NCBI GenBank assembly: GCA_964627535.1
Contig: CAZVJW010000007.1
Span: forward strand, 3,144-67,143
From: an uncultured Eubacteriales bacterium
Lineage (GTDB): Bacteria; Bacillota; Clostridia; Oscillospirales; Acutalibacteraceae
Direction of reading: 5' to 3'
Length of the DNA: 64,000 bases
A model generated the notes under the pieces. The model was given only the letters and a program-made list of their open reading frames with translations, had not been told where the DNA came from and did no database searches. Position numbers and translations under genes: made by a program. Below are positions 15,256 through 63,990 of this stretch, in pieces. Numbering within the stretch: position 1 is the first letter of the stretch; each line of letters opens with the position of its first letter.

Positions 15256-15400
15256 CAGTTTTTACCTCAGCAATTATAATTATTTCCGACTGAACATGCG
15301 AGGAAAAAGCCTGTTCGCATAAAGGTATACGGTCAGGCTTTTTGCCGGCGAAAACATCGTCGATTCTTTGTTTGTGAGCACTTATTTTTTTATCGGTCAT
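15248..15400 (-). CDS. Small ORF (50 aa, MTDKKISAHKQRIDDVFAGKKPDRIPLCEQAF...), stop overlapping the methyltransferase start (ATGGATAA); possible URO-D/MtaA-family N-terminal remnant or coupled leader ORF
   Basis: Found by hand, not in the track (<60 aa). GGAGA 6 nt upstream of the ATG. Its ..GKKPDRIPLC.. resembles the conserved N-terminal ..DRVPVC.. of URO-D-family proteins. Confidence 0.25.
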   Translation of the reverse strand: MTDKKISAHKQRIDDVFAGKKPDRIPLCEQAFSSHVQSEIIIIAEVKTDG

Positions 15401-16106: not shown

Positions 16107-16646
16107 TTATTCAAATAAATAGCAGCTCGTGAATGTTATCGTCTGCGGGCCGTTGTTGTAGGCGACGCCGGAAAGGGTGCATACCTTGCTGACGAATAAA
16201 CCGTAGGCCTCCATGGAAGGAACAGCGAGCTCCGGGAAACGGCAGGGCGCGTCGGGGTAGGTGCATTCGGGGCATACGGAGCAAGCGCCCGCGCCCATCG
16301 GCATCATTTTTGGGAAACGAAGTCGCAAATCGGCAGTGAAGTTTTTAAAGTTTTGCCTGTGCTTTGAGGAGGTTGCTTCAATTGTTTCCCAGTCGAAATC
16401 GTCCTCCATCTGCCCGATAGTCTGCACAAGCAAACCTTTGGAATATTCAGCTGCTCTCAGCGATGCCTCCTCGATGGTTCCGCAGCCGGGGGGGCATGTC
16501 CAGCTTTTGCCGTAACTGTGGCAGCGGTCTGCCGCGCACATGTCCCTGACCTCGGGCATAAACTCAATGGCTTTGCGGTTGAGTTCGCCTGCCTGTGAAA
16601 ATCCCGCGGTTAATGCTTCGTCAATTAATGTTTTCATATCAATCAT
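16107..16646 (-). CDS. DUF2284 predicted metal-binding protein
   Basis: Cys motifs ..CPPGCG.., ..CSVCPEC.. Start set at the internal ATG 16644-46 (RBS AGGAGGT); the track start 16721 is a TTG. Confidence 0.6.
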   Translation of the reverse strand: MIDMKTLIDEALTAGFSQAGELNRKAIEFMPEVRDMCAADRCHSYGKSWTCPPGCGTIEEASLRAAEYSKGLLVQTIGQMEDDFDWETIEATSSKHRQNFKNFTADLRLRFPKMMPMGAGACSVCPECTYPDAPCRFPELAVPSMEAYGLFVSKVCTLSGVAYNNGPQTITFTSCYLFE

Positions 16647-16729
16647 AAAATAAATACCTCCTGTTGCGTTGCTGACTGAAATAGTATATATTAATTTTAT
16701 TAGTGATACAAGTCGAATCAATCAACTCA

Positions 16730-16899: not shown

Positions 16900-18027
16900 A
16901 TGGTAGAAAGAGAAAAAATGAGCTTGGGTGCTCAAAAAATGCGAGACTTCTACGAGATGAAAAAGGGCGCTCATATCTATCAGGAAGAGTTCGGATTTTT
17001 CACCTTTGACCGCTGGACAGCGGCGGGTTTTTTGAGTGATGATGTTGATTTAAACAAGCTGTTCGGTTATGACGAGCCGGGTAAGTATTCCTTAGGTAAG
17101 TTAGGCTGGTGCGAAAGTGAACTAAACCCCATCTTTAAAGAAGAAGTTTTGGAAGACAGGGGAGAGCATGAACTTGTGCGGGATTTCGCGGGCAGGCATG
17201 TTCTTTATTTCAAGGGGCGAAGGAACGGCTTTATGCCGGAGTATGTTGACCATCCGGTGAAGGATATGCTGACCTGGGAGCGGGATGTCAAATGGCGGCT
17301 TGACCCGTCAACACCAAAACGCTTTGCAGACATCGAAAAGAGAATGGAAAATGCAAAGAACCGGGAAAAGCAGGGGATGGTGATCTGCCAGAACCTGATC
17401 GGCGGCTATATGTATCTTCGCTCGCTCATGGGACCGGAAGGCGTTTTATATATGGTGTACGACGCGCCGGAGCTGATACATGACTGCATGAAAACATGGT
17501 TCGAACTGGCGGATACCGTCATCGCGCAGCATCAGAAGTATGTCACGCTGGATGAAATCTTTTTAGCAGAGGACATCTGTTACAAGGGCGGACCGTTGAT
17601 TTCACCTGCCATGATGCGTGAGTTTTTATTTCCATACTATCAGCAGCTGACATTAAACGCCAAAAACAGGCAGATTGATAAAACGCGGCTGCTTCACATC
17701 CAGATTGATACGGACGGCGACTGCAGGCCGGTGATCCCCGTTTACAAAGAAATCGGCATGGACTATATGTCTCCGTTTGAAGTTGCCTCCGGCTGCGATG
17801 TGGTGGAGCAGAGAAAACAATATCCGGAACTTTTGATGCGCGGCGGGATTGACAAACGGATATTAGCCGAAAGCAAGGATGCCATTGACCGGGAGCTCGA
17901 AAGAATCATGCCTTTTATGCGCGAACAAGGCGGTTATATTCCAACCTGCGACCATGGGGTGCCGGAAGAGGTGCCGTTTGAAAACTACCTGCATTACAGA
18001 AAAAGAATGATTGAATACAGCAGCTGA
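16900..18027 (+). CDS. Uroporphyrinogen-decarboxylase (URO-D/MtaA-like) family protein
   Basis: 375 aa with a URO-D-like C-terminal region (..MPFMREQGGYIPTCDHGVPEEVPFENY..). Confidence 0.6.
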   Translation: MVEREKMSLGAQKMRDFYEMKKGAHIYQEEFGFFTFDRWTAAGFLSDDVDLNKLFGYDEPGKYSLGKLGWCESELNPIFKEEVLEDRGEHELVRDFAGRHVLYFKGRRNGFMPEYVDHPVKDMLTWERDVKWRLDPSTPKRFADIEKRMENAKNREKQGMVICQNLIGGYMYLRSLMGPEGVLYMVYDAPELIHDCMKTWFELADTVIAQHQKYVTLDEIFLAEDICYKGGPLISPAMMREFLFPYYQQLTLNAKNRQIDKTRLLHIQIDTDGDCRPVIPVYKEIGMDYMSPFEVASGCDVVEQRKQYPELLMRGGIDKRILAESKDAIDRELERIMPFMREQGGYIPTCDHGVPEEVPFENYLHYRKRMIEYSS

Positions 18028-20011: not shown

Positions 20012-20440
20012 ATGGATATGATTATGGGCAAAGTTTTAAGGTCAAACAATATGAATAAATGCATCGGCTGCTTTACCTGCCAAAGGGTTTGCGCCGGCAT
20101 CAACCACAAGTCGTTTACCGACGATAAAAGCGCAATAAAAATACGTACACTTGGCGGATTATCCGGTAAGTTTTTTGCCACGCACTGCCTTGCCTGCACC
20201 GGGGACATCGCCTGCATGAATGCCTGCCCGACCGGCGCGCTGACGGAAAGACCCGGCGGCGGCGTGATACTCAATGAAAAGAAATGTATTCATTGCAAAA
20301 AATGCGCCGAAAGCTGTATTGTGAAAGCAATTTATTTTACCGATGACAACTCTCCGCCCATCATCTGCAAACACTGCGGAATCTGTGTAAAATATTGCCC
20401 CCACAATTGCCTGACCATGGAGGATAAGGACGATGCTTAA
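20012..20440 (+). CDS. 4Fe-4S dicluster ferredoxin-domain protein (AOR partner)
   Basis: Three CxxCxxCxxxC-type clusters (CIGCFTCQRVC, CIHCKKCAESC, CKHCGICVKYCP); overlaps the AOR start by 8 nt. Confidence 0.8.
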   Translation: MDMIMGKVLRSNNMNKCIGCFTCQRVCAGINHKSFTDDKSAIKIRTLGGLSGKFFATHCLACTGDIACMNACPTGALTERPGGGVILNEKKCIHCKKCAESCIVKAIYFTDDNSPPIICKHCGICVKYCPHNCLTMEDKDDA

Positions 20441-22196
20441 CGAAAACTATATTAAAGTCTTACATATAGACCTAACTTCCGGGAAAGTCAGTGTTGACCT
20501 GCGGGAAGACCTAAGAAAGTTTCTCGGTGGAGTCGGCGTTGCTTCGCAGCTGCTGTATGAAAACATGGTGTCATGGGAGGACCCGTTGTCCCCTGTGCAG
20601 CCGATCGTTTTTGCTATCGGCGCGCTGAGCTCAATCTTCCCGGTTGTTACCAAAACCGTTGCGATGTTTATCTCGCCTGTTACCGGAGAATTGGGGGAGT
20701 CTTACGCCGGCGGAAGATTTGCTTACACCATGTTCAACGCTGGTATAGACGCGCTGGTCATCAAGGGCAAGGCGAAAAATCCCTGTTATATAACCATTAA
20801 CAATAACCGCATTGATATTAAGGACGCCCGTGCTTTTTGGGGGCTTCATGCCAATCAGGTGGGGCAATACATCAGGACGGTCGAGGGCGGGCAGGGCAAA
20901 CGCTCAATCATCCGAATTGGGCCTGCCGGAGAAAACCTGTGTAAAATCGCGAATGTCAATGTGGATACCTACCGGCATTTCGGCCGCATGGGGCTTGGCG
21001 CCTTATTCGGCAGCAAAAATTTAAAGGCAATTCAGGTGACGGGGGATGTCACAAAGGAGATAAAAGACCAAAAGAAATACCTCAAGGTATATAATGAGAT
21101 TTTTAACAAGGTGACGGACACCAAGCTGATGACAAAATACCATGATCTCGGCACACCGATCAATGTCAATGTTTTAAATATCATCGGTGCGCTGCCTGTC
21201 AAAAATCTTCAGGAAGCGCATGTCGATGATGCCGAAGGTATCAGCGGTGAGCATTTTGCCGAGAGAAATCTTATTAGAAAAATAGCCTGTGTCGGCTGTC
21301 CGGTAGGCTGCGTACACATTGGGCAAGTCAGGCGTGAATTTGATACAGGGCATGAATATGAAACCTTGAATGTCGCTTACGACTATGAACTGATTGCAAC
21401 ATTGGGATCAAACTTAGGGATAACCGACAGCGACTCGATTTTGGAACTGATAGACGCGGTGGAAGAATACGGGCTGGACGCGGTCGCGGGCGGAATCTGT
21501 CTGGCATATGCAACAGAGTGCTTCGAAAAGAAGATTGTTACGGAAGAAGAAACGATTGTTCCGCTGGAATTCGGCAATAAAGAAAACTATCTGAAGGCTA
21601 TAAAATTTATGGCGGCCAAGGAAAACGATTTTTATGCCGCATTGTCAGACGGCGTCGCGGTGGCATCGAAGAAATACGGAGGCGAGGAATTTGCCGTATC
21701 CATCGCTAAAAACGAAATGCCGGCGTACCATACCGGCTACGGAGCAATAGTTGGATATAGCTGCGGTGCAAGGCACAGCCATTTATGCAACGGCGGTTAT
21801 TCTTATGACCAGACAAACAAAGAATTTAACAAGCAGAATATTGTTGACAGCATATTTGAAGAAGAAGTCAAGCGCTGCGTTTTGAATTCGCTTATCATCT
21901 GTCTTTTCGCCAGGAATGTGTATGACAATGCGACAATACTCTCCGCGCTGGACGCAATCAGCGCAATCGGACCCGAGAACCTGAATGACGAATATTTGGA
22001 GCAGTTAGGCCTGCGGATCTATAAAACCAAATTAAAGATTAAAGAAGCGCTGGGGTTTGACCTTTCGAAAATCCAGATATCAAAACGAGTTTTCAGCACA
22101 CCGGCAATGGGGAATGTGTTGGATGAAGACACTGCACGGGAAATGATTGAGATGTTCAAGCAAAAGGACGAGGAATTGCTTGCTTCGGAAATCTAA
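20433..22196 (+). CDS. Aldehyde:ferredoxin oxidoreductase (tungsten-type AOR family)
   Basis: 587 aa; AOR_N and AOR_C signatures (..LGGVGVASQLLYE.., ..CVGCPVGC..). Confidence 0.8.
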   Translation: MLNENYIKVLHIDLTSGKVSVDLREDLRKFLGGVGVASQLLYENMVSWEDPLSPVQPIVFAIGALSSIFPVVTKTVAMFISPVTGELGESYAGGRFAYTMFNAGIDALVIKGKAKNPCYITINNNRIDIKDARAFWGLHANQVGQYIRTVEGGQGKRSIIRIGPAGENLCKIANVNVDTYRHFGRMGLGALFGSKNLKAIQVTGDVTKEIKDQKKYLKVYNEIFNKVTDTKLMTKYHDLGTPINVNVLNIIGALPVKNLQEAHVDDAEGISGEHFAERNLIRKIACVGCPVGCVHIGQVRREFDTGHEYETLNVAYDYELIATLGSNLGITDSDSILELIDAVEEYGLDAVAGGICLAYATECFEKKIVTEEETIVPLEFGNKENYLKAIKFMAAKENDFYAALSDGVAVASKKYGGEEFAVSIAKNEMPAYHTGYGAIVGYSCGARHSHLCNGGYSYDQTNKEFNKQNIVDSIFEEEVKRCVLNSLIICLFARNVYDNATILSALDAISAIGPENLNDEYLEQLGLRIYKTKLKIKEALGFDLSKIQISKRVFSTPAMGNVLDEDTAREMIEMFKQKDEELLASEI

Positions 22197-51229: not shown

Positions 51230-52666
51230 TTAGCGGCGCTGACTATCCGCAATTTGAACTTTTAAAATATTTGTTGTGCCGCTGACACCAAGCGGGACAC
51301 CGCCGGTAATGACGACAAGGTCTCCGTTTTTAATAAGCTTGGCATCCAAAGCCCGTTCAACCACATGGTCGAAAAGATCATCTGTTGAACATTTTATATC
51401 GGCCATTATCGGGTATACCCCCCATGAAAGCGCGAGCTGGCGCCATACCGTTTGGTTAACCGCCGCTGCTATGATGGGGCAGTCGGGTCTGAATTTTGAA
51501 ACCATCCGCGCCGTATGCCCGGACTCTGTTACTGTAATAATGGCAGCTGCGTTCAGGTCGTGCGCCGTGGTGCAGGTTGCATGGCTGATAGCGTCTGTGG
51601 TGTTATGCATGGAAAAATTGTTTTCGTCAAATCTTTTCCGGTAATGAATATCACTCTCTGTTTTTTTGGCTATCTTAACCATTGTCTTAAGACTCTCAAC
51701 AGGATACTTGCCCGCTGCGGTTTCGCCGGAAAGCATGATAGCACTGGTACCGTCATAAATCGCGTTCGCCACATCCGTGGTTTCTGCCCTTGTCGGCCTC
51801 GGATTCCTCATCATTGAATCAAGCATCTGCGTCGCGACAATAACTCTTTTGCCGGCGGAATAGCATTTTTTGACAAGTGATTTTTGAATGCTTGGAAGGT
51901 TTTCAAAGGGTATTTCAACCCCCATGTCTCCTCTGGCCACCATGATACCGTCGCTGGCTGTAATGATTGCGTCTATATTGTCAACACCAAGCTGGCTTTC
52001 TATTTTTGCGATAACATTAATATGCGAGCCGTTGTGCTTGGCGAGGAAATCTTTCAGCTCCAAAACATTATCAGGTGAGCTGACGAATGATGCGGAAACA
52101 AAATCGATATCATGTTCGATCCCGAAAAGCAAATCGTCTCTGTCCTGCTGCCGCATATACGGGATATGAAGCATAACACCGGGAGCGTAGATGCTTTTTT
52201 GGTCCGAAATAGGGCCGCCGTTTACAACCGTGCAGATAATATTTTCGCTTTCTATGCGGTCGACAACCATTTCAAGCAGACCGTCATCTATTAAAATGGA
52301 ATTGCCCTTGCGCAAGTCATTGGGCAAACCCGCGTAACTGACGGATACCATCTCATTTGTTCCCTCAACCGCTTGCGTCGTTAAAGTAAACGTTTGACCC
52401 GTGACGATTTCTGTTTCTCCGTTTATAAAGGTTCCAATCCTGACTTCCGGCCCTTTTGTGTCAAGCATCAGTGCCACGGGGAAACTGTATTCGCTTCGTA
52501 TCCTTTTAAAGGTTTTTATTCTTTGTATGTGCTCGGGATAATCACCGTGAGAAAAATTCATTCTCGCGACATTCATCCCGGTTTTTATCAATGCTCGCAG
52601 CACGTCTTCATCGTCGGTCGCGGGGCCCAGGGTGCAAATAATTTTTGTTCTAAGCATAATCGTCAC
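51230..52666 (-). CDS. pyk: Pyruvate kinase
   Basis: ..KIICTLGPATDDEDVLRALIKTGMNVARMNFSHGDYPEH.., ..MVARGDMGVEIP.. Confidence 0.95.
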   Translation of the reverse strand: MTIMLRTKIICTLGPATDDEDVLRALIKTGMNVARMNFSHGDYPEHIQRIKTFKRIRSEYSFPVALMLDTKGPEVRIGTFINGETEIVTGQTFTLTTQAVEGTNEMVSVSYAGLPNDLRKGNSILIDDGLLEMVVDRIESENIICTVVNGGPISDQKSIYAPGVMLHIPYMRQQDRDDLLFGIEHDIDFVSASFVSSPDNVLELKDFLAKHNGSHINVIAKIESQLGVDNIDAIITASDGIMVARGDMGVEIPFENLPSIQKSLVKKCYSAGKRVIVATQMLDSMMRNPRPTRAETTDVANAIYDGTSAIMLSGETAAGKYPVESLKTMVKIAKKTESDIHYRKRFDENNFSMHNTTDAISHATCTTAHDLNAAAIITVTESGHTARMVSKFRPDCPIIAAAVNQTVWRQLALSWGVYPIMADIKCSTDDLFDHVVERALDAKLIKNGDLVVITGGVPLGVSGTTNILKVQIADSQRR

Positions 52667-52805
52667 TCCTTGTAAGTTGCATTGCTATTATAGTATAAAG
52701 AGGAGAAATTAGCAATTAATCAATTCAATTTTGTGCCACAAATAATCAATATAGAAAACGGAAGATTGATTTCGCGGCCAGACGAATTTTCACGGCCGTA
52801 TTTCC

Positions 52806-52834
52806 TTGACATTGTTTTATATGAAGGCTAAAAT
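52806..52834 (+). promoter_or_regulatory. Promoter TTGACA-17-TAAAAT upstream of the 52910 gene
   Basis: ccTTGACAttgttttatatgaaggcTAAAATatt. Confidence 0.45.
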
Positions 52835-52909
52835 ATTAAATCATAAAGCTATGCAAACGGTTTCAAGTTATCCCGCGTATTTCATGAAGTGATTGAATAA
52901 ATTTGGCAC

Positions 52910-54607
52910 ATGATTGCCGGAGGTGTTTATTTGGAATTATTCAATACAGTTCTTCGTTTAACGGATACCGCGGTACCGTATATTATTTCAATGCAGCAGA
53001 AAGACCCCGAAAACAGGGATTATAACGGACAAATCATTACGGGCAAAGGCTTTGCGGAACCCGGCGCTTCAAGCTCCGCAGCCGCTGCCTTGATAGCCGC
53101 GTATTTTTGCCCCGAATCAACGTACTTTCACCATGATGTTCTATTAACAAACGCAATAGATGCGCTTGTGTTTTTGCTTTCACGTTGCCATGATGACGGG
53201 TCATTGGATTTAATGGAGACAAACTTCCATGACTGCACCTGCAATGCTTTTGCGGTGCAGAGTATCGCTTACACATATCGTTTACTGGAAAAAGAAGCCA
53301 GAACCGCGCTTGAGCTGAAAGCCAAAGAACTTGTTTGGTCATTTTTGCAAACCTCCGCAAAAGCAATGCTGAACGGCGGCTTTCACACCCCGAACCACCG
53401 TTGGGTGATGGCCTCCGCGCTTTCGCTGTGCGCCAATATCCTGGGGGATGAACGCTGCTCGGTGATGGCAAAAACATATCTTTCCGAGGATGTGGACCAA
53501 AACAAAGAAGGGGACTACACCGAGCGCTCCGCGGGCGGATATGACGCCATATGTAATGAATCGCTTTGCATCCTTGCGGAGGAACTGCAGCTGCCGGAGC
53601 TTTACGGGTATGTAGAGCACAATTTGGAAAAAAGTCTGTACTACCTGGAACCGGATTTTACCGTTCTTACCTTGGCAAGCCGGCGCCAGGATTATGGCAA
53701 AGACATCGTTCCGGTCCGCAATTTTTTGCCCGCGCTTTTACTGTACCGCCGAAACGCAGATAAAAACGCCCTTGTTTTGGCAAATGCGTTGTTAAGACAG
53801 ATGGACGCGCTCGAGGTGAAGGCGGGACCGCCGGCAAAGAGGTTCGCATCGCTCAACCATCAGAATCTGTTAACCCGCTTATTATTAGATCCTGCGCTTG
53901 CCGACCTTTTGCCGCAAACCGGCACTATCCCCGTCCGATATGATAAACTGTTTGAGCTGGCGGGTATTGCACGGTACAGGCACGATGATTTTACGGTGAC
54001 TATCATCAGGGACAACCCGGCTTTGATTAAAATTCAAAACGGCTGCCTGAAAGCTGTTGTCCGCCTTGCGGCCAGCTTTTTCGGAAGAGGACAGATGAAA
54101 GCGCAGACAATCAAAAAAATCGACGGCGGTTACCGCTGCACATACGATGCCAAGCAGGGCTATGTCCGCCCGGTGGAAGACCTGCATGAAAAGGACTGGC
54201 AAGCAATTGACCACAGCAAGCGCGAAAAGGTAAATATACAGCATCTGTGTTATCAGGTTGATGTGTTCCCGGCGGGCAATTCGATCACAATGCAGGTGAA
54301 GGCAGCCGGCACACCGAATGTTCCGCTCAAACTTGAATTTGTTTTTGAAGAAGGCGGAATGCTTTATACCGAGCATACAACCCAGCCGGGGATGCCCGGG
54401 GGGTATGCGATTGTCGGCGAGGGTTTTTCATACGAACGCTGCGGCGAAAAGCTTTTGGTTGAAGGGGGCTTTAACTGTCACGAATACGCACCATTTATGC
54501 GTGGGTCTGAACCAATGCCGCAGAATTCTTTCTGTGTGTTTTGCACGGATTTTACCCCGGTGGATACCGAAATAAAAATAACCGCTCCACCGTTTGCCGA
54601 GATATAA
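52910..54607 (+). CDS. Hypothetical protein, 565 aa; possible heparinase II/III-like (alpha/alpha-toroid polysaccharide lyase) fold
   Basis: Weak resemblance only (..GGFHTPNHRWVMASAL..). First gene of a co-oriented block with URO-D-like, GRE and activase. Confidence 0.4.
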   Translation: MIAGGVYLELFNTVLRLTDTAVPYIISMQQKDPENRDYNGQIITGKGFAEPGASSSAAAALIAAYFCPESTYFHHDVLLTNAIDALVFLLSRCHDDGSLDLMETNFHDCTCNAFAVQSIAYTYRLLEKEARTALELKAKELVWSFLQTSAKAMLNGGFHTPNHRWVMASALSLCANILGDERCSVMAKTYLSEDVDQNKEGDYTERSAGGYDAICNESLCILAEELQLPELYGYVEHNLEKSLYYLEPDFTVLTLASRRQDYGKDIVPVRNFLPALLLYRRNADKNALVLANALLRQMDALEVKAGPPAKRFASLNHQNLLTRLLLDPALADLLPQTGTIPVRYDKLFELAGIARYRHDDFTVTIIRDNPALIKIQNGCLKAVVRLAASFFGRGQMKAQTIKKIDGGYRCTYDAKQGYVRPVEDLHEKDWQAIDHSKREKVNIQHLCYQVDVFPAGNSITMQVKAAGTPNVPLKLEFVFEEGGMLYTEHTTQPGMPGGYAIVGEGFSYERCGEKLLVEGGFNCHEYAPFMRGSEPMPQNSFCVFCTDFTPVDTEIKITAPPFAEI

Positions 54608-54682
54608 CATTCAGCTCAACATTTTATTTACAGATACTATTCACCATTTAGAAGACAGTATGATACGAAAGGAAAGAGTGAC

Positions 54683-55924
54683 ATGGATATCCCTAAACAA
54701 GACAAAGAAATCCTGCGAAAACTTGCCTCAAGGTATATGGAAATCGCATCCCTGCCCGTTCAGCGGGAGAAAATGGCGCTTTGGAAAGCGCTTAACCGCG
54801 GCAAAATGCAGCGTCCCATGGTGGTGCTCGACCAGCTTCCCTGGCATGAGCTGAACAATGAGGGGGAACTGACATGCCACGCGCAAAATTCTTTTTGCAA
54901 AGGGCTGGAATGGGATTTGCGCTCGACTATTTACAAATGGGAACATTTTCCCGTTGATATGGTCATTGAGCCGTTTATCACCATCCCGAAATCCATCATC
55001 AACAGCGGTTACGGCATCGGCGCCGATGAAGAAATTCTGCGTACCGATTTAACAGGTGGGATTGTTTCCCACCACTACAACAATCAGATTAAAACCGAAG
55101 AGGACATCGACAAAATTAAAGAAATGGTCATCATCCATAATGAAGATACCAGCAAGTATTATATGGAACAGGCACAGGATATTTTCAGCGGTATTGCGCC
55201 GGTGAGGCAAAGCGGCGGTTTGCAGTTGCATCTGGGTGTTTGGGACACGCTGTCGATGCTCATGGGTGTGGAGAACATCTATTTTGATTTGGTTGACCGG
55301 GCGGCGTTTATCCACAAAGCAATGGAGCGGATCACATCCTCCGTCATCGCGGGCATTGAGCAAATAAACAAACTAAAGATTTATGACGACAACGCCAACA
55401 CCTGCCATTGTTCCTATATTTATACCGACGAACTGCTGCCGGACTTCGGCGCGGGCAAGGGAATGACAACGCAAAACGGCTGGGCGTTCGGGCTCGCGCA
55501 ACTGTTCACTTCCGTCAGCCCCGCCTTTACCGAGGAGTTCGAGCTCCCGTACATCACACGCATGGCGGAGCATTTCGGCATGATTTACTACGGCTGCTGT
55601 GACCGGCTGGACGACCGCCTGGATCTGGTGAAAAAAATCCCGCATGTCAAAAAGGTATCCTGCAGCCCGTGGAGCAACCGCGATGTTTTTGCGGAAAAAA
55701 TCGGACCGGAACTTGTGATGTCCAACAAACCGACCCCCGCGTTTGCAGCCGAAGATACTTTTGAGCCGGAAGCGGTCCGCAAAGATTTGGAACTGACGAT
55801 AGCCGCCGCGAAACGAAATGGGGCCAATCTGGAGTTTATCCTCAAGGATATTTCCACCGTAAAGTACCATCCGGAGCGCCTGACCGAATGGGCGAACATC
55901 GCGATGGATGTAGTTATGAGCTAA
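54683..55924 (+). CDS. Uroporphyrinogen-decarboxylase (URO-D/MtaA-like) family protein
   Basis: 413 aa; second URO-D-family paralogue in the window; 88 nt upstream of the GRE gene. Confidence 0.6.
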   Translation: MDIPKQDKEILRKLASRYMEIASLPVQREKMALWKALNRGKMQRPMVVLDQLPWHELNNEGELTCHAQNSFCKGLEWDLRSTIYKWEHFPVDMVIEPFITIPKSIINSGYGIGADEEILRTDLTGGIVSHHYNNQIKTEEDIDKIKEMVIIHNEDTSKYYMEQAQDIFSGIAPVRQSGGLQLHLGVWDTLSMLMGVENIYFDLVDRAAFIHKAMERITSSVIAGIEQINKLKIYDDNANTCHCSYIYTDELLPDFGAGKGMTTQNGWAFGLAQLFTSVSPAFTEEFELPYITRMAEHFGMIYYGCCDRLDDRLDLVKKIPHVKKVSCSPWSNRDVFAEKIGPELVMSNKPTPAFAAEDTFEPEAVRKDLELTIAAAKRNGANLEFILKDISTVKYHPERLTEWANIAMDVVMS

Positions 55925-56011
55925 AACAACAAATGCATGTGCGGATTTCTCGAATACTTGCATGAATAATAACTGTTAAAATCTGTTCCAATTTAAAAAA
56001 GGAAATATAAA

Positions 56012-58381
56012 ATGGATAGAAAAACAGATAATAATATTCTGAATGGAAACAACACCGAGTCGGTAAAATTCGGTTTAACGCCGCGCGTAAAATTCCTGCG
56101 CGAAAACGCATTGAACTGGAAAGAAACCCAGAAAGAATATATCGGGCAGAGATTATATTACGCCCTGCAGGGGCTGGTATCCTCGGATTTGGATCTGCCC
56201 TGGACGGCGCGGCGAAGCCGTATGCTTTCAAGTATTATCGGCAATTCGGCTGCCGTGATTCATGAGGAGGAATTGATTGCCGGTTATAATTATTACGGCA
56301 GCGACGATGCGATGTACAACGAGCTTTCCATTTATCCGCGAATGGAAAAGGGTAAGAAAAAGTTAACCGATTATTTAAGCGTCGGATGCCTTTCCGGCGA
56401 ACAAATCGACTTTATCATTGACGCGCTCGATAAAAGCGTAAAATATACATCGCATATGCCCTATTTTACCCCGGTGACCGAACAATATGCCGACGCGAGC
56501 AGCGAAGGCGCCGTATGGTCCCCGGGCGTAGCCGAAAACCATACGGTTCTCGGCTATGAAAAGGTTTTAAGGCTCGGGTTCTCCGGAATTTTATCCGAAG
56601 CACAAAACAGCCTTGCAAACCTCGATTTGAACGACGCCGCGTCGGTGAAGAAAAAGCTGCTTTTGGAGTGCGCCTGCGATGTTTTGGAGAACGCCTGCAA
56701 TATCGGCAAACGCAACAAAAAAAAGGCAGAGGAGCTGTTGCGCGGCTGCCTGAGTTACGAGCGTGCGCAGGACCTGAATAAAATGATTGAAGTTTTGGAC
56801 AGGGTTCCTTACGGCCCCGCACGGACTTTTCACGAGGCTGTCCAAAGCCTTTGGTTTGCCCATATCATCAACACTTGGGAGGACGGAATAAACGCCAACT
56901 CAGTCGGCAGAATTGACCAAATCCTTTACCCTTACTATAAAAAAGACATCGAAGAGGGCAGGATAACAAGAGAAGAAGCTTTTGAACTGCTTTGCTGCCT
57001 GTGGATAAAATGTTACAGGGACTATGATGTCCAGCAGGCGATGATAGGCGGTGTTGACCAAAACGGAGAGGATGCTTCCAACGAGCTTTCCTATATGATG
57101 CTTGATGTGACGGACGCACTGGATTTTGTCAGATGCCTTTCGGTCAGGCTCCACAGCGGCAGCCCTCAGGATCTGATCAAACGGGCGCTGGAAGTTGTCG
57201 GCAAGGGCAACGGCATTCCGTTCTTTTTCAACGATGATATTTTAATCCCCGCACTTGTCAGCAACGGCATCGAACTGCGGGACGCGAGAAGCTACGCGGC
57301 AATCGGCTGCGTTGAAATAACAATTCCCGGCAAAGCAAATCCCCACGCCGTTAGCAACAGGATTAATCTGCTGAAATGCCTTGAACTCGCCTTGAATGAC
57401 GGCGTAAGTTTAACCACCGGTGAACAAGCCGGCCCGAAAACCGGCAGCGTTTCAGCGATGACTGGCATGCAAGATGTTTTAACCGCTTACAAAAAGCAAG
57501 CGGAATATTTTACCGGTATCGCCTGTTTCGAATCCAACCGGCTTGAACTGCAAAACAGCCTCACTTTGCCAATGGTTTATAAATCCATATTAACCGAAGG
57601 CTGCCTGGAAACCGGCCGGGATTTTAATGACGGCGGCGCCAAATATAATTACCACGAGAGCATGCCCATGGGCATCCCGAATGTTGCCGATTCGCTGGCG
57701 GCTTTGGAAAAGCTGGTGTTCGAGAATAACAAATATACGCTGGGCGAGGTTGCGGATATTTTAAAAGGAAATTTCGAGGATGAGTCTGTCAGGCAGGAAT
57801 TTTTAAACAAAGCGCCGAAGTTCGGCAATGACGACGACCTGGTTGACAGTTACGCGGCAAGGATTACGGAACATTTCTGCAAAACGCTTCAAAATATCAA
57901 AGGTATCAGCGGGCTCGGGTTTTTCGCTCAGCCGTTCACCTTCCTTTGGCTGATTGAAGCGGGCGGGATGACCGCTGCGACGCCGGATGGCCGGAGGGAC
58001 GGCGAAAATATTGCTTACAGCATTTCGCCCATGCAGGGCAGGGACAGCAGCGGGCTGACGGCGGTGCTCAACTCCATAGCAAAGCTGCCGGCAAAAATGG
58101 CGGCGGGCAGCACCTCCGCTATTATTGAGGTCGACCCGATGCTTTTCGAAAAAGATAAAATCGACCAAATGGTTATCATGCTCAAGACGGCTTTTCAAAA
58201 AGGCGTCGGTCAGATCCAGTTCAATGTTACAAACGCCGAAACACTCAAAAAAGCGCAGGCCGATCCGGAGAAATATCAAAACCTTGCCGTGCGGGTGTCG
58301 GGCTTCAGCCAGCGGTTTTGCCTGCTGGATAAAAAACTGCAGGACCATATCATCGCGCGGACCAAACATGAAAGTTTTTAG
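56012..58381 (+). CDS. Glycyl radical enzyme, eliminase/dehydratase class (not PFL), 789 aa
   Basis: C-terminal glycyl-radical motif ..AVRVSGFSQRF..; single-Cys thiyl loop ..AAIGCVEITIPG.. (PFL has CC). Confidence 0.85.
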   Translation: MDRKTDNNILNGNNTESVKFGLTPRVKFLRENALNWKETQKEYIGQRLYYALQGLVSSDLDLPWTARRSRMLSSIIGNSAAVIHEEELIAGYNYYGSDDAMYNELSIYPRMEKGKKKLTDYLSVGCLSGEQIDFIIDALDKSVKYTSHMPYFTPVTEQYADASSEGAVWSPGVAENHTVLGYEKVLRLGFSGILSEAQNSLANLDLNDAASVKKKLLLECACDVLENACNIGKRNKKKAEELLRGCLSYERAQDLNKMIEVLDRVPYGPARTFHEAVQSLWFAHIINTWEDGINANSVGRIDQILYPYYKKDIEEGRITREEAFELLCCLWIKCYRDYDVQQAMIGGVDQNGEDASNELSYMMLDVTDALDFVRCLSVRLHSGSPQDLIKRALEVVGKGNGIPFFFNDDILIPALVSNGIELRDARSYAAIGCVEITIPGKANPHAVSNRINLLKCLELALNDGVSLTTGEQAGPKTGSVSAMTGMQDVLTAYKKQAEYFTGIACFESNRLELQNSLTLPMVYKSILTEGCLETGRDFNDGGAKYNYHESMPMGIPNVADSLAALEKLVFENNKYTLGEVADILKGNFEDESVRQEFLNKAPKFGNDDDLVDSYAARITEHFCKTLQNIKGISGLGFFAQPFTFLWLIEAGGMTAATPDGRRDGENIAYSISPMQGRDSSGLTAVLNSIAKLPAKMAAGSTSAIIEVDPMLFEKDKIDQMVIMLKTAFQKGVGQIQFNVTNAETLKKAQADPEKYQNLAVRVSGFSQRFCLLDKKLQDHIIARTKHESF

Positions 58382-58404
58382 CAATCAACTATCGGAGGGC
58401 GTTC

Positions 58405-59232
58405 ATGAACGGTATTGTTTTTGATATTCAGCGATTTTCGATTGATGACGGACCGGGCATCAGAACAACCGTGTTTTTAAAGGGATGCGGGTTAAGGTGC
58501 CTGTGGTGCCACAATCCGGAAGGGCTGCAGGAATGCCCCGAGATTATGTTTTTTCCGCAAAAGTGCATCGGCTGTGGGAAATGCTTCCAAGTCTGTTTGC
58601 AAAAATGCCACAAGACTGAGAACGGTACCAGAGAATTTTTAAGAGAATACTGCCTTCGCTGCGGCAAATGCGCTGAAGTGTGTTATTCGGGAGCCTTGAG
58701 CGTATCCGGAAAGAGCATGTCCGCGGCTGAAGTTGTTGCTGAAATCGAAAAGGACGGCATGTTTTACGAAAACTCCGGGGGGGGAGTAACCTTTTCGGGC
58801 GGAGAGCCTTTGCTTCAGGCGGATTTTATGCGGGAAATGATGATCATGTGCAAAAAACTCGGATACAGCTGCGCGGTGGAAACCGCAGGAAATACCGCAT
58901 GGAGTGAATTTGAAAAAATCTTGCCTTATACCGACCTGTTCCTTTATGATATTAAAGCGATTGACGAAAAACTCCACAAAAAGGTGACGGGAGCGGGTAA
59001 CAAACGGATTATCGGCAACCTCAGAAAGCTGGCGGGTGAAAAACCGGAGATATGGATAAGAACGCCGGAGATTCCCGGCATCAACGATACCCCGGAGGAA
59101 AAGCAGAAGCTTTCCGAACTGCTGCTGGAGCTTAAGGCGGTCAAAACCCATGTTTATATGCCTTATCACCGGCTTGGCGAAAGCAAGTATACAAGTTTAG
59201 GACTTCTGCCGCCATTCCTTCCAACCCTTTAA
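58405..59232 (+). CDS. Glycyl-radical-enzyme activating enzyme (radical SAM) with two auxiliary ferredoxin-like clusters
   Basis: CGLRCLWCHNPE (CxxxCxxC) plus CIGCGKCFQVC and CLRCGKCAEVC; 275 aa. Confidence 0.85.
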   Translation: MNGIVFDIQRFSIDDGPGIRTTVFLKGCGLRCLWCHNPEGLQECPEIMFFPQKCIGCGKCFQVCLQKCHKTENGTREFLREYCLRCGKCAEVCYSGALSVSGKSMSAAEVVAEIEKDGMFYENSGGGVTFSGGEPLLQADFMREMMIMCKKLGYSCAVETAGNTAWSEFEKILPYTDLFLYDIKAIDEKLHKKVTGAGNKRIIGNLRKLAGEKPEIWIRTPEIPGINDTPEEKQKLSELLLELKAVKTHVYMPYHRLGESKYTSLGLLPPFLPTL

Positions 59233-59253
59233 TTATTTTGACAATATATAATC

Positions 59254-59282
59254 AAGCCACGGCTAAAAAAGCCGTGGCTTGA
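59254..59282 (+). terminator. Hairpin agccacggc-taaaaaa-gccgtggct after the activase gene (weak T-tail)
   Basis: 9-bp stem. The downstream T-run is poor. Confidence 0.35.
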
Positions 59283-59383
59283 TACTAATCCATCTTAAAA
59301 ACATAGCTAAAAATCTGCATAAAACCCCATAAATCAAAGCTTTTGCTTGGTTTTTTTAGAGGTTTTTTAATCGTGAATTAGTA
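59283..59383 (+). repeat. MITE-like element copy 6 (left TIR degenerate)
   Basis: tactaatccatcttaaaaacatagctaaaaatctgcataaaaccccataaatcaaagcttttgcttggtttttttagaggttttttaatcgtgaattagta. Confidence 0.8.
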
Positions 59384-59389
59384 TGACTG

Positions 59390-61588
59390 CTAAAAGGATA
59401 TAATTTTTCCTGAGGCAAACCTTAAAATCATAAGCGCGTCAAGCGAATCGGTCTCGCTGTCTTTGTTTATATCGGCAACGAGTTTTTGAGCATCTGTCAG
59501 TGTAATCTTCCCGGAGGCTGAACGTAATAACATCAAGGCATCAAGAGAATCAATGTTTACATCAGTATTCAAATCGCCGATCATACTCCAAAGCGCAGTA
59601 TATGTTGCGTTATCAGCTCCAACCGTTGCGGAAACTGCCTGATCCCAACCGGTAAAAATATAACCTGCTCTTGATACTGTCGGTGGGGTAATGGTTTCAC
59701 CATAGTGCATTAAACTGTTTGTGCTTCCTGTTCCGCCGTTTGCATCAAAGGTGATTATATAACTGTTGATCTGCCACTCCGCCGTATAGGTCGCGCTATT
59801 TCCGGGAACTGTCGTGGGAACCGAAGGCGCCCAACCGATGAAATAATAGCCTTCTCTTGAAACATCCGGTGCGGTAAGCGGACCTCCCGGGGTCATTTCC
59901 GTACGTGTATCGCCTTCACCGCCGTTGGCATCAAAAATTATCATTACCGTTGCCGGCGAAGTCGGAGACCAAATAGCCGACACCGTAACATCATGAGCCG
60001 GCATTATAAACGACCCCATGGACCATCCTAAAAATGTATAACCCGGCCTTGTAGGGAGTTCAAGCATAACATCCGGAACATAAATCGGGTCGTTAAGCGG
60101 GTCCGGAGATTGAAGGCTTACCTTGAATTGAGGGAAAGTAGTTATCGTTACCATTGTTCCGGCAGGTATCAAATAGTCTAATACCATACCGCCGCTTCCC
60201 CCGTTTTCGTCGAAGTCAAGGTGATATCTCGGGTTGCTCCACTTAGCGTAAAGGGTTTGATCCGATGTTATTGTCACCATAGTGGTGCTGTAAATGCATG
60301 TTCCGCTGCCGTCTGTACCTGTATACCATCCGCTGAAAACCTTACCTGATTTTGTTGGTTCCGGTAAAGTCCCGTAAGTGAGACCGGTCGTTACCGTTAT
60401 GGTTGCCGGCGAGACCGTGCCGCCCTGCGGGTCAAAAGTGACAGTGAAAACGGTGACAGGTATCCATTTGGCATAAAGGGTTTGCGCCGATGTAATTGAT
60501 ACATAATTAGTTGCGTAAACTCTGGTTCCCGCGCCGCCCGGACTAGTATACCAGCCCGAAAAAACATAATCTGTCCTTGACGGTGTCGGTAAGGTACCGT
60601 AGCTGTTTAAATATATGACGGTTATGGATGACGGCGTTACCGTGCCGCCCTGTGCGTCAAAAGTGACTGTAAAAGTGCTTGCCGCCCATTGCGCCTTATA
60701 GGTTGTGCTTTTTTGTGGAACGGTCGCAGGTACCAAAGGTGACCAGCCTGTAAAAGTATAGCCGGCTTTTGTAATAACGGGCGCAGTAAGTGCCAAGCCA
60801 GGCAGCATCGGGTTGCTTGTGCCTCCTATGCCGCCGTTGGCATTGAAGACAATGGTTGAATAACCGGGTATTTCGGTTAGATAGCCGTACCAAGGGCTGA
60901 TAAAACCCGTTTTACCGCTTAAATAAAATACGGTAAAACCCGAAGCACAGCCCAAAAAAACCGTGTTTCCTAAAGTTGGCGCATTGCCTAAAAAGTATGC
61001 TGAGGCTAAACTTGTACAATTTTTGAAAGCATTGTTGCCGATACTGCTCACATGGTCGCCGATGGTCACTGTAGTCAGACCGTCGCTATAAACAAATGCG
61101 CCGCCGTTAATAGTGGTTACACTGTTTGGTATCACTACCTCGGTCAGACCGTCACAACCCTGAAAAGCAGTTGAGCCGATGACTGTTAAACTGTCAGGCA
61201 GGTTTAGGGAAGTCAGGTGTGTGCAATTCAAGAAAGCGCCGCTGCCAATTGCTGTGACATTTGTCCCAAATACCAAATCGGTCATTCCGCTGCAACCCCA
61301 GAAGGCAGAACTGCCGATAGTCGTCACACTGTTTGGTATAACAACACTTGTTATCGCCGTATTGTTCAGAAAGACCTGCGAACCGATATCGGTCACCGAA
61401 TAACCGCCCAATTCGGCAGGGATGTTTATGACGCCGCCTGTACCGCTATAAGCAGTAATCGTCGCCTTTGAGTCTGTAACCGTATAGGTGTAAACTCCGC
61501 TTGTTAAAGCGGAGGACATGATTGATCCTGCAGGGAAAACGAACAAAACCATCACGAAGACCATAATAGCTGACAACACTTTTTTCAT
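59390..61588 (-). CDS. Cell-surface protein: signal peptide, BspA-type leucine-rich repeats, Listeria/Bacteroides-type (GYTFTGW) repeats, C-terminal type-I dockerin
   Basis: LRR units ..SVVIPNSVTTIGSSAFWGCSGMT..; repeated ..AGYTFTGWS../..VFSGWYT..; C-terminal GDLNTDVNIDSLDALMLLRSASG...ADINKDSETDSLDALMILRFASG (duplicated Ca-binding dockerin segment). Confidence 0.75.
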   Translation of the reverse strand: MKKVLSAIMVFVMVLFVFPAGSIMSSALTSGVYTYTVTDSKATITAYSGTGGVINIPAELGGYSVTDIGSQVFLNNTAITSVVIPNSVTTIGSSAFWGCSGMTDLVFGTNVTAIGSGAFLNCTHLTSLNLPDSLTVIGSTAFQGCDGLTEVVIPNSVTTINGGAFVYSDGLTTVTIGDHVSSIGNNAFKNCTSLASAYFLGNAPTLGNTVFLGCASGFTVFYLSGKTGFISPWYGYLTEIPGYSTIVFNANGGIGGTSNPMLPGLALTAPVITKAGYTFTGWSPLVPATVPQKSTTYKAQWAASTFTVTFDAQGGTVTPSSITVIYLNSYGTLPTPSRTDYVFSGWYTSPGGAGTRVYATNYVSITSAQTLYAKWIPVTVFTVTFDPQGGTVSPATITVTTGLTYGTLPEPTKSGKVFSGWYTGTDGSGTCIYSTTMVTITSDQTLYAKWSNPRYHLDFDENGGSGGMVLDYLIPAGTMVTITTFPQFKVSLQSPDPLNDPIYVPDVMLELPTRPGYTFLGWSMGSFIMPAHDVTVSAIWSPTSPATVMIIFDANGGEGDTRTEMTPGGPLTAPDVSREGYYFIGWAPSVPTTVPGNSATYTAEWQINSYIITFDANGGTGSTNSLMHYGETITPPTVSRAGYIFTGWDQAVSATVGADNATYTALWSMIGDLNTDVNIDSLDALMLLRSASGKITLTDAQKLVADINKDSETDSLDALMILRFASGKIISF

Positions 61589-62052: not shown

Positions 62053-63990
62053 TTATTCCGTAACCGCCAGCGCCATGCTCCAAACCGGAAGAGCGGGCAG
62101 GCGGAATACTCTGTAATCACCGTCTTCTCCGCTGCAGCTCACGACGGTTTCGGTCATATTCTTATCCGTTACGCGCAGTTTGCTGTAATTTGTCAGCACC
62201 TTCAAGGCTGCATTCTCGGCCGTATCCATGCTTTGGTTGAGCAGAGTGATTATTTTTTGCCCGCCGGCATTTTCCCTTGCCCAAAGGCCAACCTTGTGCA
62301 GTGAGGAAATATAAGCCGGTACAGTGTCTTTGGTCAGCCAGCGAATAACATTTTTACATTGCTCCGATTTTGAGTGGCTGAGCACAAAACTCCACGGGTA
62401 ATACCCTGCGACGCAAATTCGCCCGCCGAGCTTGTTTTCGAACACGCCCATGCTGCAGGCGGCTTTGATTTTATTGCCGTAATCCACTGCTTTGGCAAGG
62501 CTCTGCGCGCCTTGCGCCGGGGGTTCCAAAACAGCGCAAGGGCATTGCCAGAAGGACTGCCTGCAGTCCCGCATACGGCCCTCCTGGCCCACGTTCAGCG
62601 GATGGTCATTCAGCACTTCAATGCAGTCGATTTCATCATATCCGGTCACCTTGAACCCCGTCAGTTCGCCGTAGCCCATTTCATTGAGTGTTTCCAGTGC
62701 CGGTCCGTCCAGGTAAACCCCCTTGGCAAGCCAGCCGAGCAGCTCTTTTTCGCTAAACGAATAAGGCGTAAAACTGCGGAACATGGCCATCTGCGCCTGT
62801 TCGGGGCTGTAAGCCATGGGGATGCCGATTTCAAACCATTCGTCTGCAAAATGGGGGTCAATACTTTCCGGCGGGCCGAACCATTTACCGCGCAGATTGC
62901 GGGGGGCTTCACTGTCCTTGTTCCAGCCGGTGAAGACACCATGCGTCAAAAGCCTGCCCTGCGCCGCTGCAAGCGCATCGTAAAACGGGCGCTGCCTTTT
63001 GATTTCTTTCAGAAGCGGACCCTTTTCAAGCACGATATCCTCGTAAAGGTTCATAATATTCAGCGCGGCGCCCGTGCAGCCGGCCGCAATATAGGCGGAA
63101 ACCTCGGCGGCATTGATGTGGATGCTCTTGCCGAGCGCCTCGTAATTGAAGTTTTCGATTTCGGATTGGATAGACCGCACTTCCTGCGGCAATAGTGCTA
63201 TCTGCCTGCCGATGTCATGCGCTTTGCCCGCCATTTCCTTCAGGCTGGTGTCGCGGTAAAAGCCGGCGCCCGGCCGCCACATAACTTCCTGCTTCGCGGG
63301 GCCTGCGAGCAACCCTGCCTGTGTATCAAAATCATAGCCGTCGGAATAGCGCTCACCGGTCATGAATCCGATTTTGACAGCGGGGTTTATGCTGTGAACG
63401 GTTTTTTCAATGGTCACAAACAGGCGGTTAATGGTGTTGCGTTTGCCCTGCAGCCACAGCTTGCGGAAAGCCAGTTTTTCTTTGATCTCCCCGCTGTTCA
63501 GCTTGTCCGCAATGGTTTCCCTGGTGTAAAGAGTGCCGGAAAGCTTGGCGAATTCGGCGAGGCATTTATCGCAGAAACAGTCGGAGCCGATATCGCCGTG
63601 CCCGGAGCGGACATCGTCATCAATCCAGATAAAATCGGGTTCGGTTTGCGTTATTACCGTGTAAAGCGGGATGACATATTCCCGCACGAAATTTTCATCA
63701 TTCGGGCAGAAGGAACCGAGGCAGATTTTGCCTTCCGGCCCAGTCCTTCGGGTATAATCGCCTTTCAGCGAATTCTCCAGATTTTCGTTGTGATGCCCCA
63801 TGGTCGAGAGGATGTTGACGCCGCAGGAGTATCCGCGCGCTTTCGCGGCGAGGATGCTTGCTTTCATGATCGGCGCGTAATTGTATACGGTCTGCAGCGG
63901 CAGGGGCGGATGGGTGAACCCGGAAAAAAGCGCCAGTTCATCAACTGCGCCTTTATTGGCGTCCAGCAAATCCAGAAGCTCCGTGAACAT
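62053..63990 (-). CDS. Hypothetical protein, >645 aa, possibly 5'-partial (frame open to window end)
   Basis: Long clean ORF with Cys cluster ..GSDCFCDKC..; no confident family assignment. Confidence 0.45.
   Translation of the reverse strand: MFTELLDLLDANKGAVDELALFSGFTHPPLPLQTVYNYAPIMKASILAAKARGYSCGVNILSTMGHHNENLENSLKGDYTRRTGPEGKICLGSFCPNDENFVREYVIPLYTVITQTEPDFIWIDDDVRSGHGDIGSDCFCDKCLAEFAKLSGTLYTRETIADKLNSGEIKEKLAFRKLWLQGKRNTINRLFVTIEKTVHSINPAVKIGFMTGERYSDGYDFDTQAGLLAGPAKQEVMWRPGAGFYRDTSLKEMAGKAHDIGRQIALLPQEVRSIQSEIENFNYEALGKSIHINAAEVSAYIAAGCTGAALNIMNLYEDIVLEKGPLLKEIKRQRPFYDALAAAQGRLLTHGVFTGWNKDSEAPRNLRGKWFGPPESIDPHFADEWFEIGIPMAYSPEQAQMAMFRSFTPYSFSEKELLGWLAKGVYLDGPALETLNEMGYGELTGFKVTGYDEIDCIEVLNDHPLNVGQEGRMRDCRQSFWQCPCAVLEPPAQGAQSLAKAVDYGNKIKAACSMGVFENKLGGRICVAGYYPWSFVLSHSKSEQCKNVIRWLTKDTVPAYISSLHKVGLWARENAGGQKIITLLNQSMDTAENAALKVLTNYSKLRVTDKNMTETVVSCSGEDGDYRVFRLPALPVWSMALAVTE

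Follow-up and report, generated by a model that had tools for sequence, protein, structure and literature searches.

We analysed a stretch of 64,000 nucleotides from an uncultured Eubacteriales bacterium of the family Acutalibacteraceae (assembly GCA_964627535.1, contig CAZVJW010000007.1; hereafter, the window) and, within it, four co-oriented genes at positions 52910-59232 that encode two proteins denoted here A and B, a glycyl radical enzyme (GRE) and its activase (AE) (Table 1). The four open reading frames (ORFs) lie on the plus strand exactly where the preliminary description of this DNA had put them, and are separated by 75 (A-B), 87 (B-GRE; previously counted as 88) and 23 (GRE-AE) nt. 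They appear to encode a functional GRE system, with a genuine, oxygen-sensitive GRE and an activator that would generate the glycyl radical. As judged by sequence comparison, the GRE clusters with no characterised family, and its closer relatives recurrently have genes of the URO-D superfamily, to which B appears to belong, as neighbours. The preliminary description had taken the four genes for a candidate novel operon. Its sequence-level observations are confirmed and its interpretation is partly supported: the GRE does fall outside the characterised families and the link to URO-D holds at the superfamily level, but the four genes are not a conserved unit.

Table 1 Coordinates of the four genes and of the predicted transcription signals in the window
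Feature	Position	Strand	Description
Gene A	52910-54607	+	565 aa as ORF; toroid-type protein
Gene B	54683-55924	+	413 aa; URO-D-fold barrel protein
GRE gene	56012-58381	+	789 aa; glycyl radical enzyme, CXE type
Activase gene (AE)	58405-59232	+	275 aa; radical-SAM
Predicted sigma-70-type promoter, TTGACA-17 nt-TAAAAT	52806-52834	+	consensus match only
Candidate terminator, G+C-rich palindromic hairpin with 14-bp stem	59251-59283	unassigned	between the convergent AE and LRR/dockerin genes

The A-B-GRE-AE block has the organisation of a single apparent operon, with a predicted promoter, no internal terminator and a terminal hairpin. The promoter, which had been pointed out previously, matches the consensus at 11 of 12 positions, is the top promoter-like site in the interval 52600-59500 and lies about 75-95 nt 5' of gene A. 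A scan of the same interval found no terminator-like site between B and GRE, and the strongest such site is the hairpin downstream of AE, which was scored on the minus strand and has a palindromic stem. Gene A probably starts at the TTG codon at 52931, which yields a protein of 558 aa, because an identical database protein (P0241) has this length and a GGAGG box at 52920 precedes this codon. The 5' flank of the unit consists of housekeeping genes (the Pho/Pst system, a hydrolase and pyruvate kinase), and no Rfam match to a riboswitch, cobalamin or other, was found in the window.

A glycyl radical enzyme outside the characterised families

Membership of the GRE in the PFL-like superfamily is borne out by the PFL-like barrel (PF02901, 476.9 bits), the glycyl radical domain with the RVxG motif (PF01228, 90.1 bits) and the adjacent downstream activase gene. 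The glycine loop, RVSGF, occupies residues 761-765, with G764 as the radical glycine, and the thiyl loop, GCVE, residues 432-435, with C433 as the only cysteine in the loop, followed by E435; both loops had been recognised in the preliminary description. C433 and E435 align with C433 and E435 of glycerol dehydratase (GD), and H177 aligns with GD His164. A June 2026 review of GREs defines the 1,2-eliminase and isomerase classes by the catalytic Cys, the Glu of the CXE motif and a His that corresponds to GD His164, and the G432-C433-V434-E435 sequence, invariant across the clade described below, places the enzyme there. The activase is of the multi-cluster, non-PflA type: in addition to the radical S-adenosylmethionine (SAM) motif CX3CX2C (CGLRCLWC, residues 28-35, with C28, C32 and C35), it carries a ferredoxin-like insert with two CX2CX2CX3C motifs (CIGCGKCFQVC at 54-64 and CLRCGKCAEVC at 83-93) that matches Fer4 families across residues 51-98. 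It scores well above the cut-off of the general family TIGR02494 (334.5 versus 174.35 bits), and its score with the model for the HypD activase is almost as high (326.5 bits). The assignment of an eliminase-class GRE with a three-cluster activase thus holds.

The GRE itself falls below every NCBIfam cut-off. For the PFL2/glycerol dehydratase subfamily TIGR01774, the score is 492.9 bits against a cut-off of 678.2, and for each equivalog model tested it is less than half of the cut-off: HypD, 417.6 of 1100; CutC, 367.7 of 1050; HpsG, 378.3 of 1000; HpfG, 358.1 of 1000; IAD, 302.3 of 1100; HPAD, 241 of 1150; and PFL, 124 of 994 bits. The closest entry in the PDB is GD (1r8w; 391 bits, 34% identity over 718 aligned positions). 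The clade of the window enzyme has no counterpart among the characterised GRE classes of the 2026 review.

A scan of one genome per species identified relatives of this GRE in at least 283 species-level genomes, and 80 loci were fetched for comparison (L-numbers, such as L001, are labels of comparison loci). Across 76 full-length homologues with 42-100% identity, the motifs NH, WEDGINANS, YDVQQ, GC[VI]E, NPHAV and QPFT[FY]W are nearly unchanged, except that QPFT[FY]W is replaced by HLF[TS][FY]L in one subclade. Most of the invariant residues of the pocket are Asn, Gln, Asp, Glu, His, Arg or Trp, a polar composition that we infer to resemble that of sugar-binding sites. The clade motifs are missing from unrelated second GRE paralogues in the same loci. 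Short GRE paralogues (about 705-715 aa, 25-30% identical, with a different pocket; L020, L045, L048, L067, L073 and L074) are encoded within a few kb of the main GRE, often with an activase of their own.

In the alignment of the homologues, the clade splits into three subclades. The first includes the window GRE and its relatives with at least 53% identity, from Clostridia, Chloroflexota and Asgard archaea; the second, from Clostridia, has an N-terminal AraC-type helix-turn-helix (HTH) domain fused to the GRE; and the third comes from Armatimonadota and Chloroflexota. The activase gene lies directly 3' of the GRE gene in 51 loci. The AraC-fused proteins (for example, L012:9620-12274 and L049:9599-12295, with about 40 others among L013-L078) are about 870 aa long, and in them HTH_18 at residues 35-119 immediately adjoins the PFL-like domain. 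They lack a separate cupin for ligand binding, which suggests that the GRE serves as its own sensor. For such fusions, nothing relevant was found in the literature searched. In one Chloroflexia metagenome-assembled genome (MAG), the GRE homologue is split into three consecutive ORFs of 96, 108 and 598 aa (L008:9986-12354), either a pseudogene or the result of assembly frameshifts.

The four-gene arrangement and the URO-D association

The A-B-GRE-AE arrangement is private to this genome. By tblastn and profile searches, no A homologue was found in the 80 GRE loci, and a B homologue was found in only one of these, on the opposite strand. A is not a hidden conserved partner of the GRE, because the A-family profile matches only the window among the GRE loci. 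The closest relatives of the GRE have other genes upstream: an MFS transporter gene and divergently transcribed flavoprotein genes in L092 (94% GRE identity), unrelated genes in L093 (87%), where an MFS_2 transporter gene lies downstream, and a gene for LacZ-type GH2, 44 nt away, in L097 (85%); none of the three has A or B. Loci of other close relatives contain a URO-D gene and an MFS_2 transporter (L001, 83%), DUF4838, GH2 and URO-D genes (L002 and L003, about 75%), an MFS_2 transporter (L004) or a GH78 rhamnosidase (L005). What is kept among the close relatives is the downstream side, namely, the activase, an LRR/Flg_new surface protein and a 645-aa protein.

Conversely, A and B occur together without a GRE in L081. 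In this JGI contig (L081:10001-11681), the A homologue beside B is split into ORFs of 473 and 103 aa with overlapping homology. The split reflects a frameshift or an error of sequencing, and the A+B pair is conserved in other respects.

In the preliminary description, tight clustering of the GRE with a characterised family, together with lack of conservation of the URO-D neighbour, was to count against the proposal. For orthologues of B, such lack is what we found; the GRE shows no such clustering, and divergent URO-D genes still recur next to the GREs. With a profile built from the Pfam-positive URO-D neighbours of GREs, matches were detected in 7 of the 12 loci in which the GRE is 50% or more identical to that of the window, as against 3 of 68 in the sister subclades (Fisher p = 2.5e-5, uncorrected for phylogeny). 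In L002, L003, L006 and L009, the URO-D gene is co-oriented with the GRE gene and lies 33-71 nt from it, compared with 87 nt in the window. These neighbours belong to at least 4 divergent subfamilies, so that several independent GRE/URO-D juxtapositions, rather than one inherited arrangement, are indicated. The association with URO-D is real at the superfamily level and is unprecedented in the reviewed literature: as previously claimed, such a pairing does not match the characterised GRE systems, since the 2026 review covers none in which a GRE is combined with a URO-D-fold partner, and nothing relevant on it, or on a combination of GRE with rhamnosidase, turned up in the literature searched.

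One further locus, L088, was considered as an orthologous example of the pairing and rejected, since its GRE belongs to a different clade (732 aa, GCEE cysteine loop, RVTGY glycine loop, 26% identical to the window GRE). Downstream of the GRE gene there (L088:42-8245) come genes for a metallophosphoesterase-like protein and an AraC regulator, then two PF01208 URO-D genes and one of the B family, and a GH78 gene lies nearby. This is a second, independent GRE/URO-D neighbourhood that broadens the association.

Proteins A and B

For A, presumably a cytoplasmic protein, a confident structure model supports the (alpha/alpha)-toroid plus beta-sandwich fold of the polysaccharide lyase (PL)/dermatan-sulfate epimerase type. 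The AlphaFold2 model has a pLDDT of 94.6, and the top Foldseek matches are lyases of families PL8, PL12, PL15, PL17, PL21 and PL40 along with dermatan-sulfate epimerase (E about 1e-10, TM-score about 0.5, about 10% identity). By sequence, A has no match in Pfam (E<=10), NCBIfam, the PDB or PHROGs. Its family is unnamed; among 334 homologues found, one is labelled 'alginate lyase domain-containing' in UniRef. The residues that are invariant in the sequence alignment of the family include N162, H163, R164, W165, E205, Y211, R259 and D261. Inspection of the N-terminus by eye revealed no obvious signal peptide. A gene for a GH88 unsaturated glucuronyl hydrolase adjoins one A homologue, and A-family genes co-occur with genes of the URO-D superfamily in 4 of the 6 contexts examined.

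For B, the evidence supports a divergent (beta/alpha)8 barrel of the URO-D/MtaA superfamily, from a large unnamed family (1325 homologues; 1974 representative clusters) in which few homologues have a precomputed PF01208 match. The model (pLDDT 94.3) retrieves URO-D and the MtaA-type methyltransferase 4ay7 as the top 25 Foldseek matches in the PDB (E 5e-9 to 5e-6, target TM-score about 0.6), and hhalign links the B family to the Pfam-positive URO-D genes with 97.3% probability (E 2.5e-11). B itself has no PF01208 match even at E<=10 and none in NCBIfam, PHROGs or, by sequence, the PDB. Thus, the earlier labels, heparinase-like for A and URO-D/MtaA family for B, are right as to fold, but at the superfamily level only, because they are supported by structure models and profile comparison, with no family match; B is not a member of PF01208. 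An invariant G-C-C motif is present in B at 304-306 (Y-Y-G-C-C). An MtaA-like zinc site was considered but is not supported at the canonical position, away from which the Cys-Cys of B lies; H-x-C-G appears in only one subfamily of the GRE-neighbouring URO-D genes (L007, L010 and L021). The Pfam-positive URO-D genes adjacent to GREs score best against the MtaA, CmuA and MtbA models, at 27-64 bits with cut-offs of 235-600, and in the flanks that were annotated we noted neither a corrinoid protein nor a B12 riboswitch.

The window contains another, true member of the URO-D family (16900-18027; PF01208, 46.2 bits), the second paralogue noted in the preliminary description, which is divergently paired with a gene for a DUF2284 'predicted metal-binding' protein (16107-16721). 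Its homologue in L082/L083 (59%; L082:8116-14271) adjoins two tandem A-family paralogues and a sugar ABC transporter, which ties the second URO-D gene of the window to the A family. A URO-D remnant had also been proposed at 15248-15400. In the 190-nt spacer between the SAM-methyltransferase and GNAT genes, one minus-strand frame at about 15305-15376 reads HKQRIDDVFAGKKPDRIPLCEQAF, a 24-residue match to the N-terminal S-x-ER-...-DR-x-P motif of URO-D, which is marginal at 4.8 bits and could be a gene remnant or a chance similarity.

Glycan context and possible function

GREs catalyse reactions that anaerobes cannot perform otherwise, and each newly assigned GRE clade has uncovered a pathway, such as those from choline to trimethylamine or for hydroxyproline, isethionate and anhydro-sugars. 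The genes around the GREs of the present clade encode glycoside hydrolases (GH2, GH78, GH106-like, GH28, GH20, GH95 and DUF4838/GH67N), an RGL11-like protein, sulfatases, enolase-superfamily dehydratases, LacAB/RpiB isomerases, phosphohexomutases, and GPH/MFS or ABC sugar transporters. The close relatives pair the GRE with GPH/MFS transporters, LacZ-type GH2, GH78/GH106 rhamnosidases, GH28, GH20, GH95, sulfatases and enolase-superfamily dehydratases. In the annotated neighbourhoods of the clade we saw no genes of amine/choline, sulfonate/sulfite-reduction or amino-acid pathways, no microcompartment shell genes and no aldehyde dehydrogenases. The glycan-related neighbours, the lack of such genes and the polar, invariant pocket make a sugar substrate, in our view, the most likely one. 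The reading we prefer, in which our confidence is evenly divided, is that the CXE-type GRE cleaves a C-O bond in a sugar-derived small molecule originating from an imported glycoside, with a URO-D-fold enzyme acting in the same short pathway.

In the reaction suggested by the conserved residues and by the precedents of GD, YbiW and PflD, the radical-SAM cluster of the activase, aided by two auxiliary [4Fe-4S] clusters, would abstract hydrogen from G764, as its motifs and homology suggest, and the resulting glycyl radical would generate a thiyl radical on C433. The latter would abstract the hydrogen of a carbinol carbon in a polyhydroxylated substrate, with E435 as the base that deprotonates the hydroxyl at that carbon and H177 as the acid that protonates the vicinal oxygen leaving group. 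If this conserved triad works as expected, cleavage of the C-O bond, with loss of water or release of a ring or ether oxygen, would give a carbonyl product. To go by the gene neighbourhoods, the substrate would derive from an imported glycoside or oligosaccharide, and the probable role of the URO-D-fold enzyme, B in this genome and members of other subfamilies elsewhere, is to produce or modify the substrate of the GRE or to use up its product. A and B would be a separately mobile two-gene module that came to be placed ahead of GRE-AE in this genome.

Several observations weigh against this interpretation. All the GRE relatives come from MAGs. The glycan context is diverse, and no GH family is found in more than about 7 of the 80 loci. 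A has no relative in any of these loci, and B-family genes mostly occur without a GRE. The available DNA of L092, L093, L097, L004 and L005 contains no URO-D-fold gene, so the URO-D partner is either not obligatory or encoded elsewhere. Finally, URO-D-like genes may simply be common in glycan loci.

The main competitor, which we consider doubtful but far from negligible, is that the neighbours would be accidental, with GRE-AE self-sufficient, A+B an unrelated glycan-processing pair and the URO-D genes mere frequent residents of glycan regions. The pair without a GRE in L081, GRE-AE without A or B at 94%, 87% and 85% identity, the many GRE-free contexts of B homologues, the several non-orthologous subfamilies among the URO-D neighbours, and a highly variable upstream side in close relatives, in contrast to conservation downstream (AE, LRR protein and 645-aa protein), all fit this explanation. 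It does not readily account for the tight co-oriented gaps (33-87 nt) in five lineages, the roughly ten-fold enrichment over sister subclades that also lie among GH78 and GH28 genes, the lack of a detected terminator between B and GRE, or the two URO-D genes and B-type gene that accompany an unrelated GRE clade in L088. Other alternatives concern the substrate. A non-carbohydrate substrate, for instance one of the hydroxy-amino acid, amine or sulfonate kinds used by HypD, CutC and IslA/HpsG, with the glycan genes irrelevant, appears improbable: these families do provide the next-best NCBIfam scores (HypD, 418; HpsG, 378; CutC, 368 bits), and the activase scores against the HypD-activase model nearly as high as against its general family, but those GRE scores are all less than half of the equivalog cut-offs, and the annotated neighbourhoods, dominated by glycoside hydrolases and sugar transporters, lack amino-acid, choline and sulfite-reduction genes. 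For C-S lyases, the 2026 review describes an Arg/Gln/Arg sulfonate anchor.

Least probable of all, in our judgement, is an ordinary B12-independent diol dehydratase acting on glycerol, or on 1,2-propanediol from rhamnose or fucose, whose apparent novelty would be mere sequence drift. Its basis is that GD is the best solved relative, with Cys, Glu and His conserved, that the positions holding the C3 hydroxyl of glycerol are hydrophobic in the window GRE (V447, F642 and F644), and that rhamnosidase and fucosidase genes are frequent among the neighbours, the last two points being such as would fit propanediol. However, identity to GD is only 34%, the TIGR01774 score is below the cut-off, all three pocket motifs shared by GD and propanediol dehydratase (PD) are replaced, and the annotated flanks of the window GRE contain no shell, aldehyde dehydrogenase or 1,3-propanediol dehydrogenase gene (the shell search covered the Pst/Pho, hydrolase, pyruvate kinase and LRR/dockerin genes, and small ORFs were not scanned singly). 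PD as such, suggested by the hydrophobic replacements at GD D447, Y640 and S642, was rejected because PD keeps the GD motifs that the window GRE is without.

The C-O cleavage of a sugar-derived compound that we prefer can be extended into a bolder and rather unlikely proposal, in which the URO-D-fold barrels are dedicated GRE partners in an anaerobic pathway, as yet undescribed, that starts from a modified or deoxy sugar and spans Clostridia, Chloroflexota, Armatimonadota and Asgard archaea, with the AraC-fused GRE doubling as its own transcription factor. Candidate substrates would be rhamnose-, galactoside- or (methyl)uronate-derived compounds freed by GH2, GH78 or lyase-type enzymes. If true, the GRE would break a C-O bond by radical chemistry, through dehydration, ring opening or de-etherification, a reaction for which anoxic habitats offer no hydrolytic or O2-dependent substitute.

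That uncharacterised GRE clades exist is already known: the 2026 review lists whole clades without an assigned function and no archaeal PFL-like GRE with a proven one. New here are the pocket of this GRE eliminase/isomerase system and the type of neighbour that recurs beside it. The clade is large and phylogenetically wide, with Asgard members, a fixed, distinctive polar pocket, a testable glycan context and AraC fusions, and its carriers are gut, rumen, digester and sediment organisms, in which the GRE is found in glycan-degradation loci. Once its substrate is assigned, a missing step in the anaerobic catabolism of polysaccharides or glycosides would probably come to light, and two very large families of 'hypothetical' proteins would gain a first function: the B-type URO-D-fold family, with its approximately 2000 representative clusters, and the A-type toroid family.

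Other genes in the window

Convergent to the activase gene is a gene (59390-61588, minus strand) for a surface protein with BspA-type leucine-rich repeats (LRR), Listeria-Bacteroides repeats and a C-terminal type I dockerin. Homologues are present at the same place in L001, L002, L003 and L097, the last with a cohesin domain, and these dockerin and cohesin domains suggest a cellulosome-like surface apparatus in these organisms. Beyond it, the 645-aa protein (62053-63990, minus strand) has homologues downstream of GRE-AE in L001 (83% identity) and L093 (88%), the latter adjoining a GH95-like gene. There is no family match in Pfam (E<=10), NCBIfam, PHROGs or, by sequence, the PDB, apart from a 12-bit trace of GHL10; this may be an unrecognised glycosidase-like protein.

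GRE eliminases typically yield aldehydes or ketones, and the window also encodes an aldehyde:ferredoxin oxidoreductase (AFOR_N and AFOR_C domains; 20433-22196, plus strand), which for this reason could be a sink for the GRE product; its position, 34 kb from the GRE, lends this no support.

Comparison with known systems

The toroid lyases (PL8, PL12 heparinase III, the PL15/PL17 oligo-alginate lyases, PL21 heparinase II and PL40) and dermatan-sulfate epimerase have the same two-domain architecture as A, but most are larger than A (558-565 aa) and no Pfam model matches A. Invariant Asn, His and Tyr residues (N162, H163 and Y211) are present in A and may correspond to the catalytic Asn/His/Tyr constellation of these lyases. 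With the URO-D and MtaA/CmuA superfamily, B shares the barrel fold and profile homology; compared with MtaA and CmuA, the invariant Cys-Cys of B follows a conserved Gly, off the canonical H-x-C zinc position.

The GRE resembles GD (DhaB1 of Clostridium butyricum, 1r8w) and PD (Roseburia inulinivorans, 5i2a) in the barrel and glycyl radical domain, the single-Cys G-C-V-E loop with the CXE Glu, and the His164 equivalent, and in all these systems a three-cluster activase is encoded directly downstream. Where GD and PD share the motifs E-S-x-GHSIS, GWHD[SA]AFF and LYP[SV]S, however, the window GRE has WEDGINANS, NPHAVSNRI and QPFTFL, and among the compared pocket motifs only the His164 equivalent (H177) is retained. 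Because these shared motifs differ, the enzyme does not appear to be a disguised glycerol or propanediol dehydratase. Unlike the GD and PD systems, the window locus has no microcompartment or aldehyde-processing genes seen in the annotated flanks, and the clade is surrounded by genes for glycoside hydrolases, GPH transporters and URO-D-fold proteins.

The proposed role has its closest functional analogy in the GRE sugar isomerases YbiW and PflD, the C-O lyases of 1,5-anhydroglucitol-6-phosphate and 1,5-anhydromannitol-6-phosphate, whose substrates are sugar phosphates imported via routes of the phosphotransferase system type, whereas the transporters of the present clade are of the GPH/MFS or ABC type. 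These enzymes are further from the window GRE in sequence than GD is (284-299 versus 391 bits), and no URO-D partner is described for them in the 2026 review. Nevertheless, they too are GREs of the CXE type, act on a carbohydrate-derived substrate by breaking a C-O bond and are a precedent for GRE chemistry on sugars.

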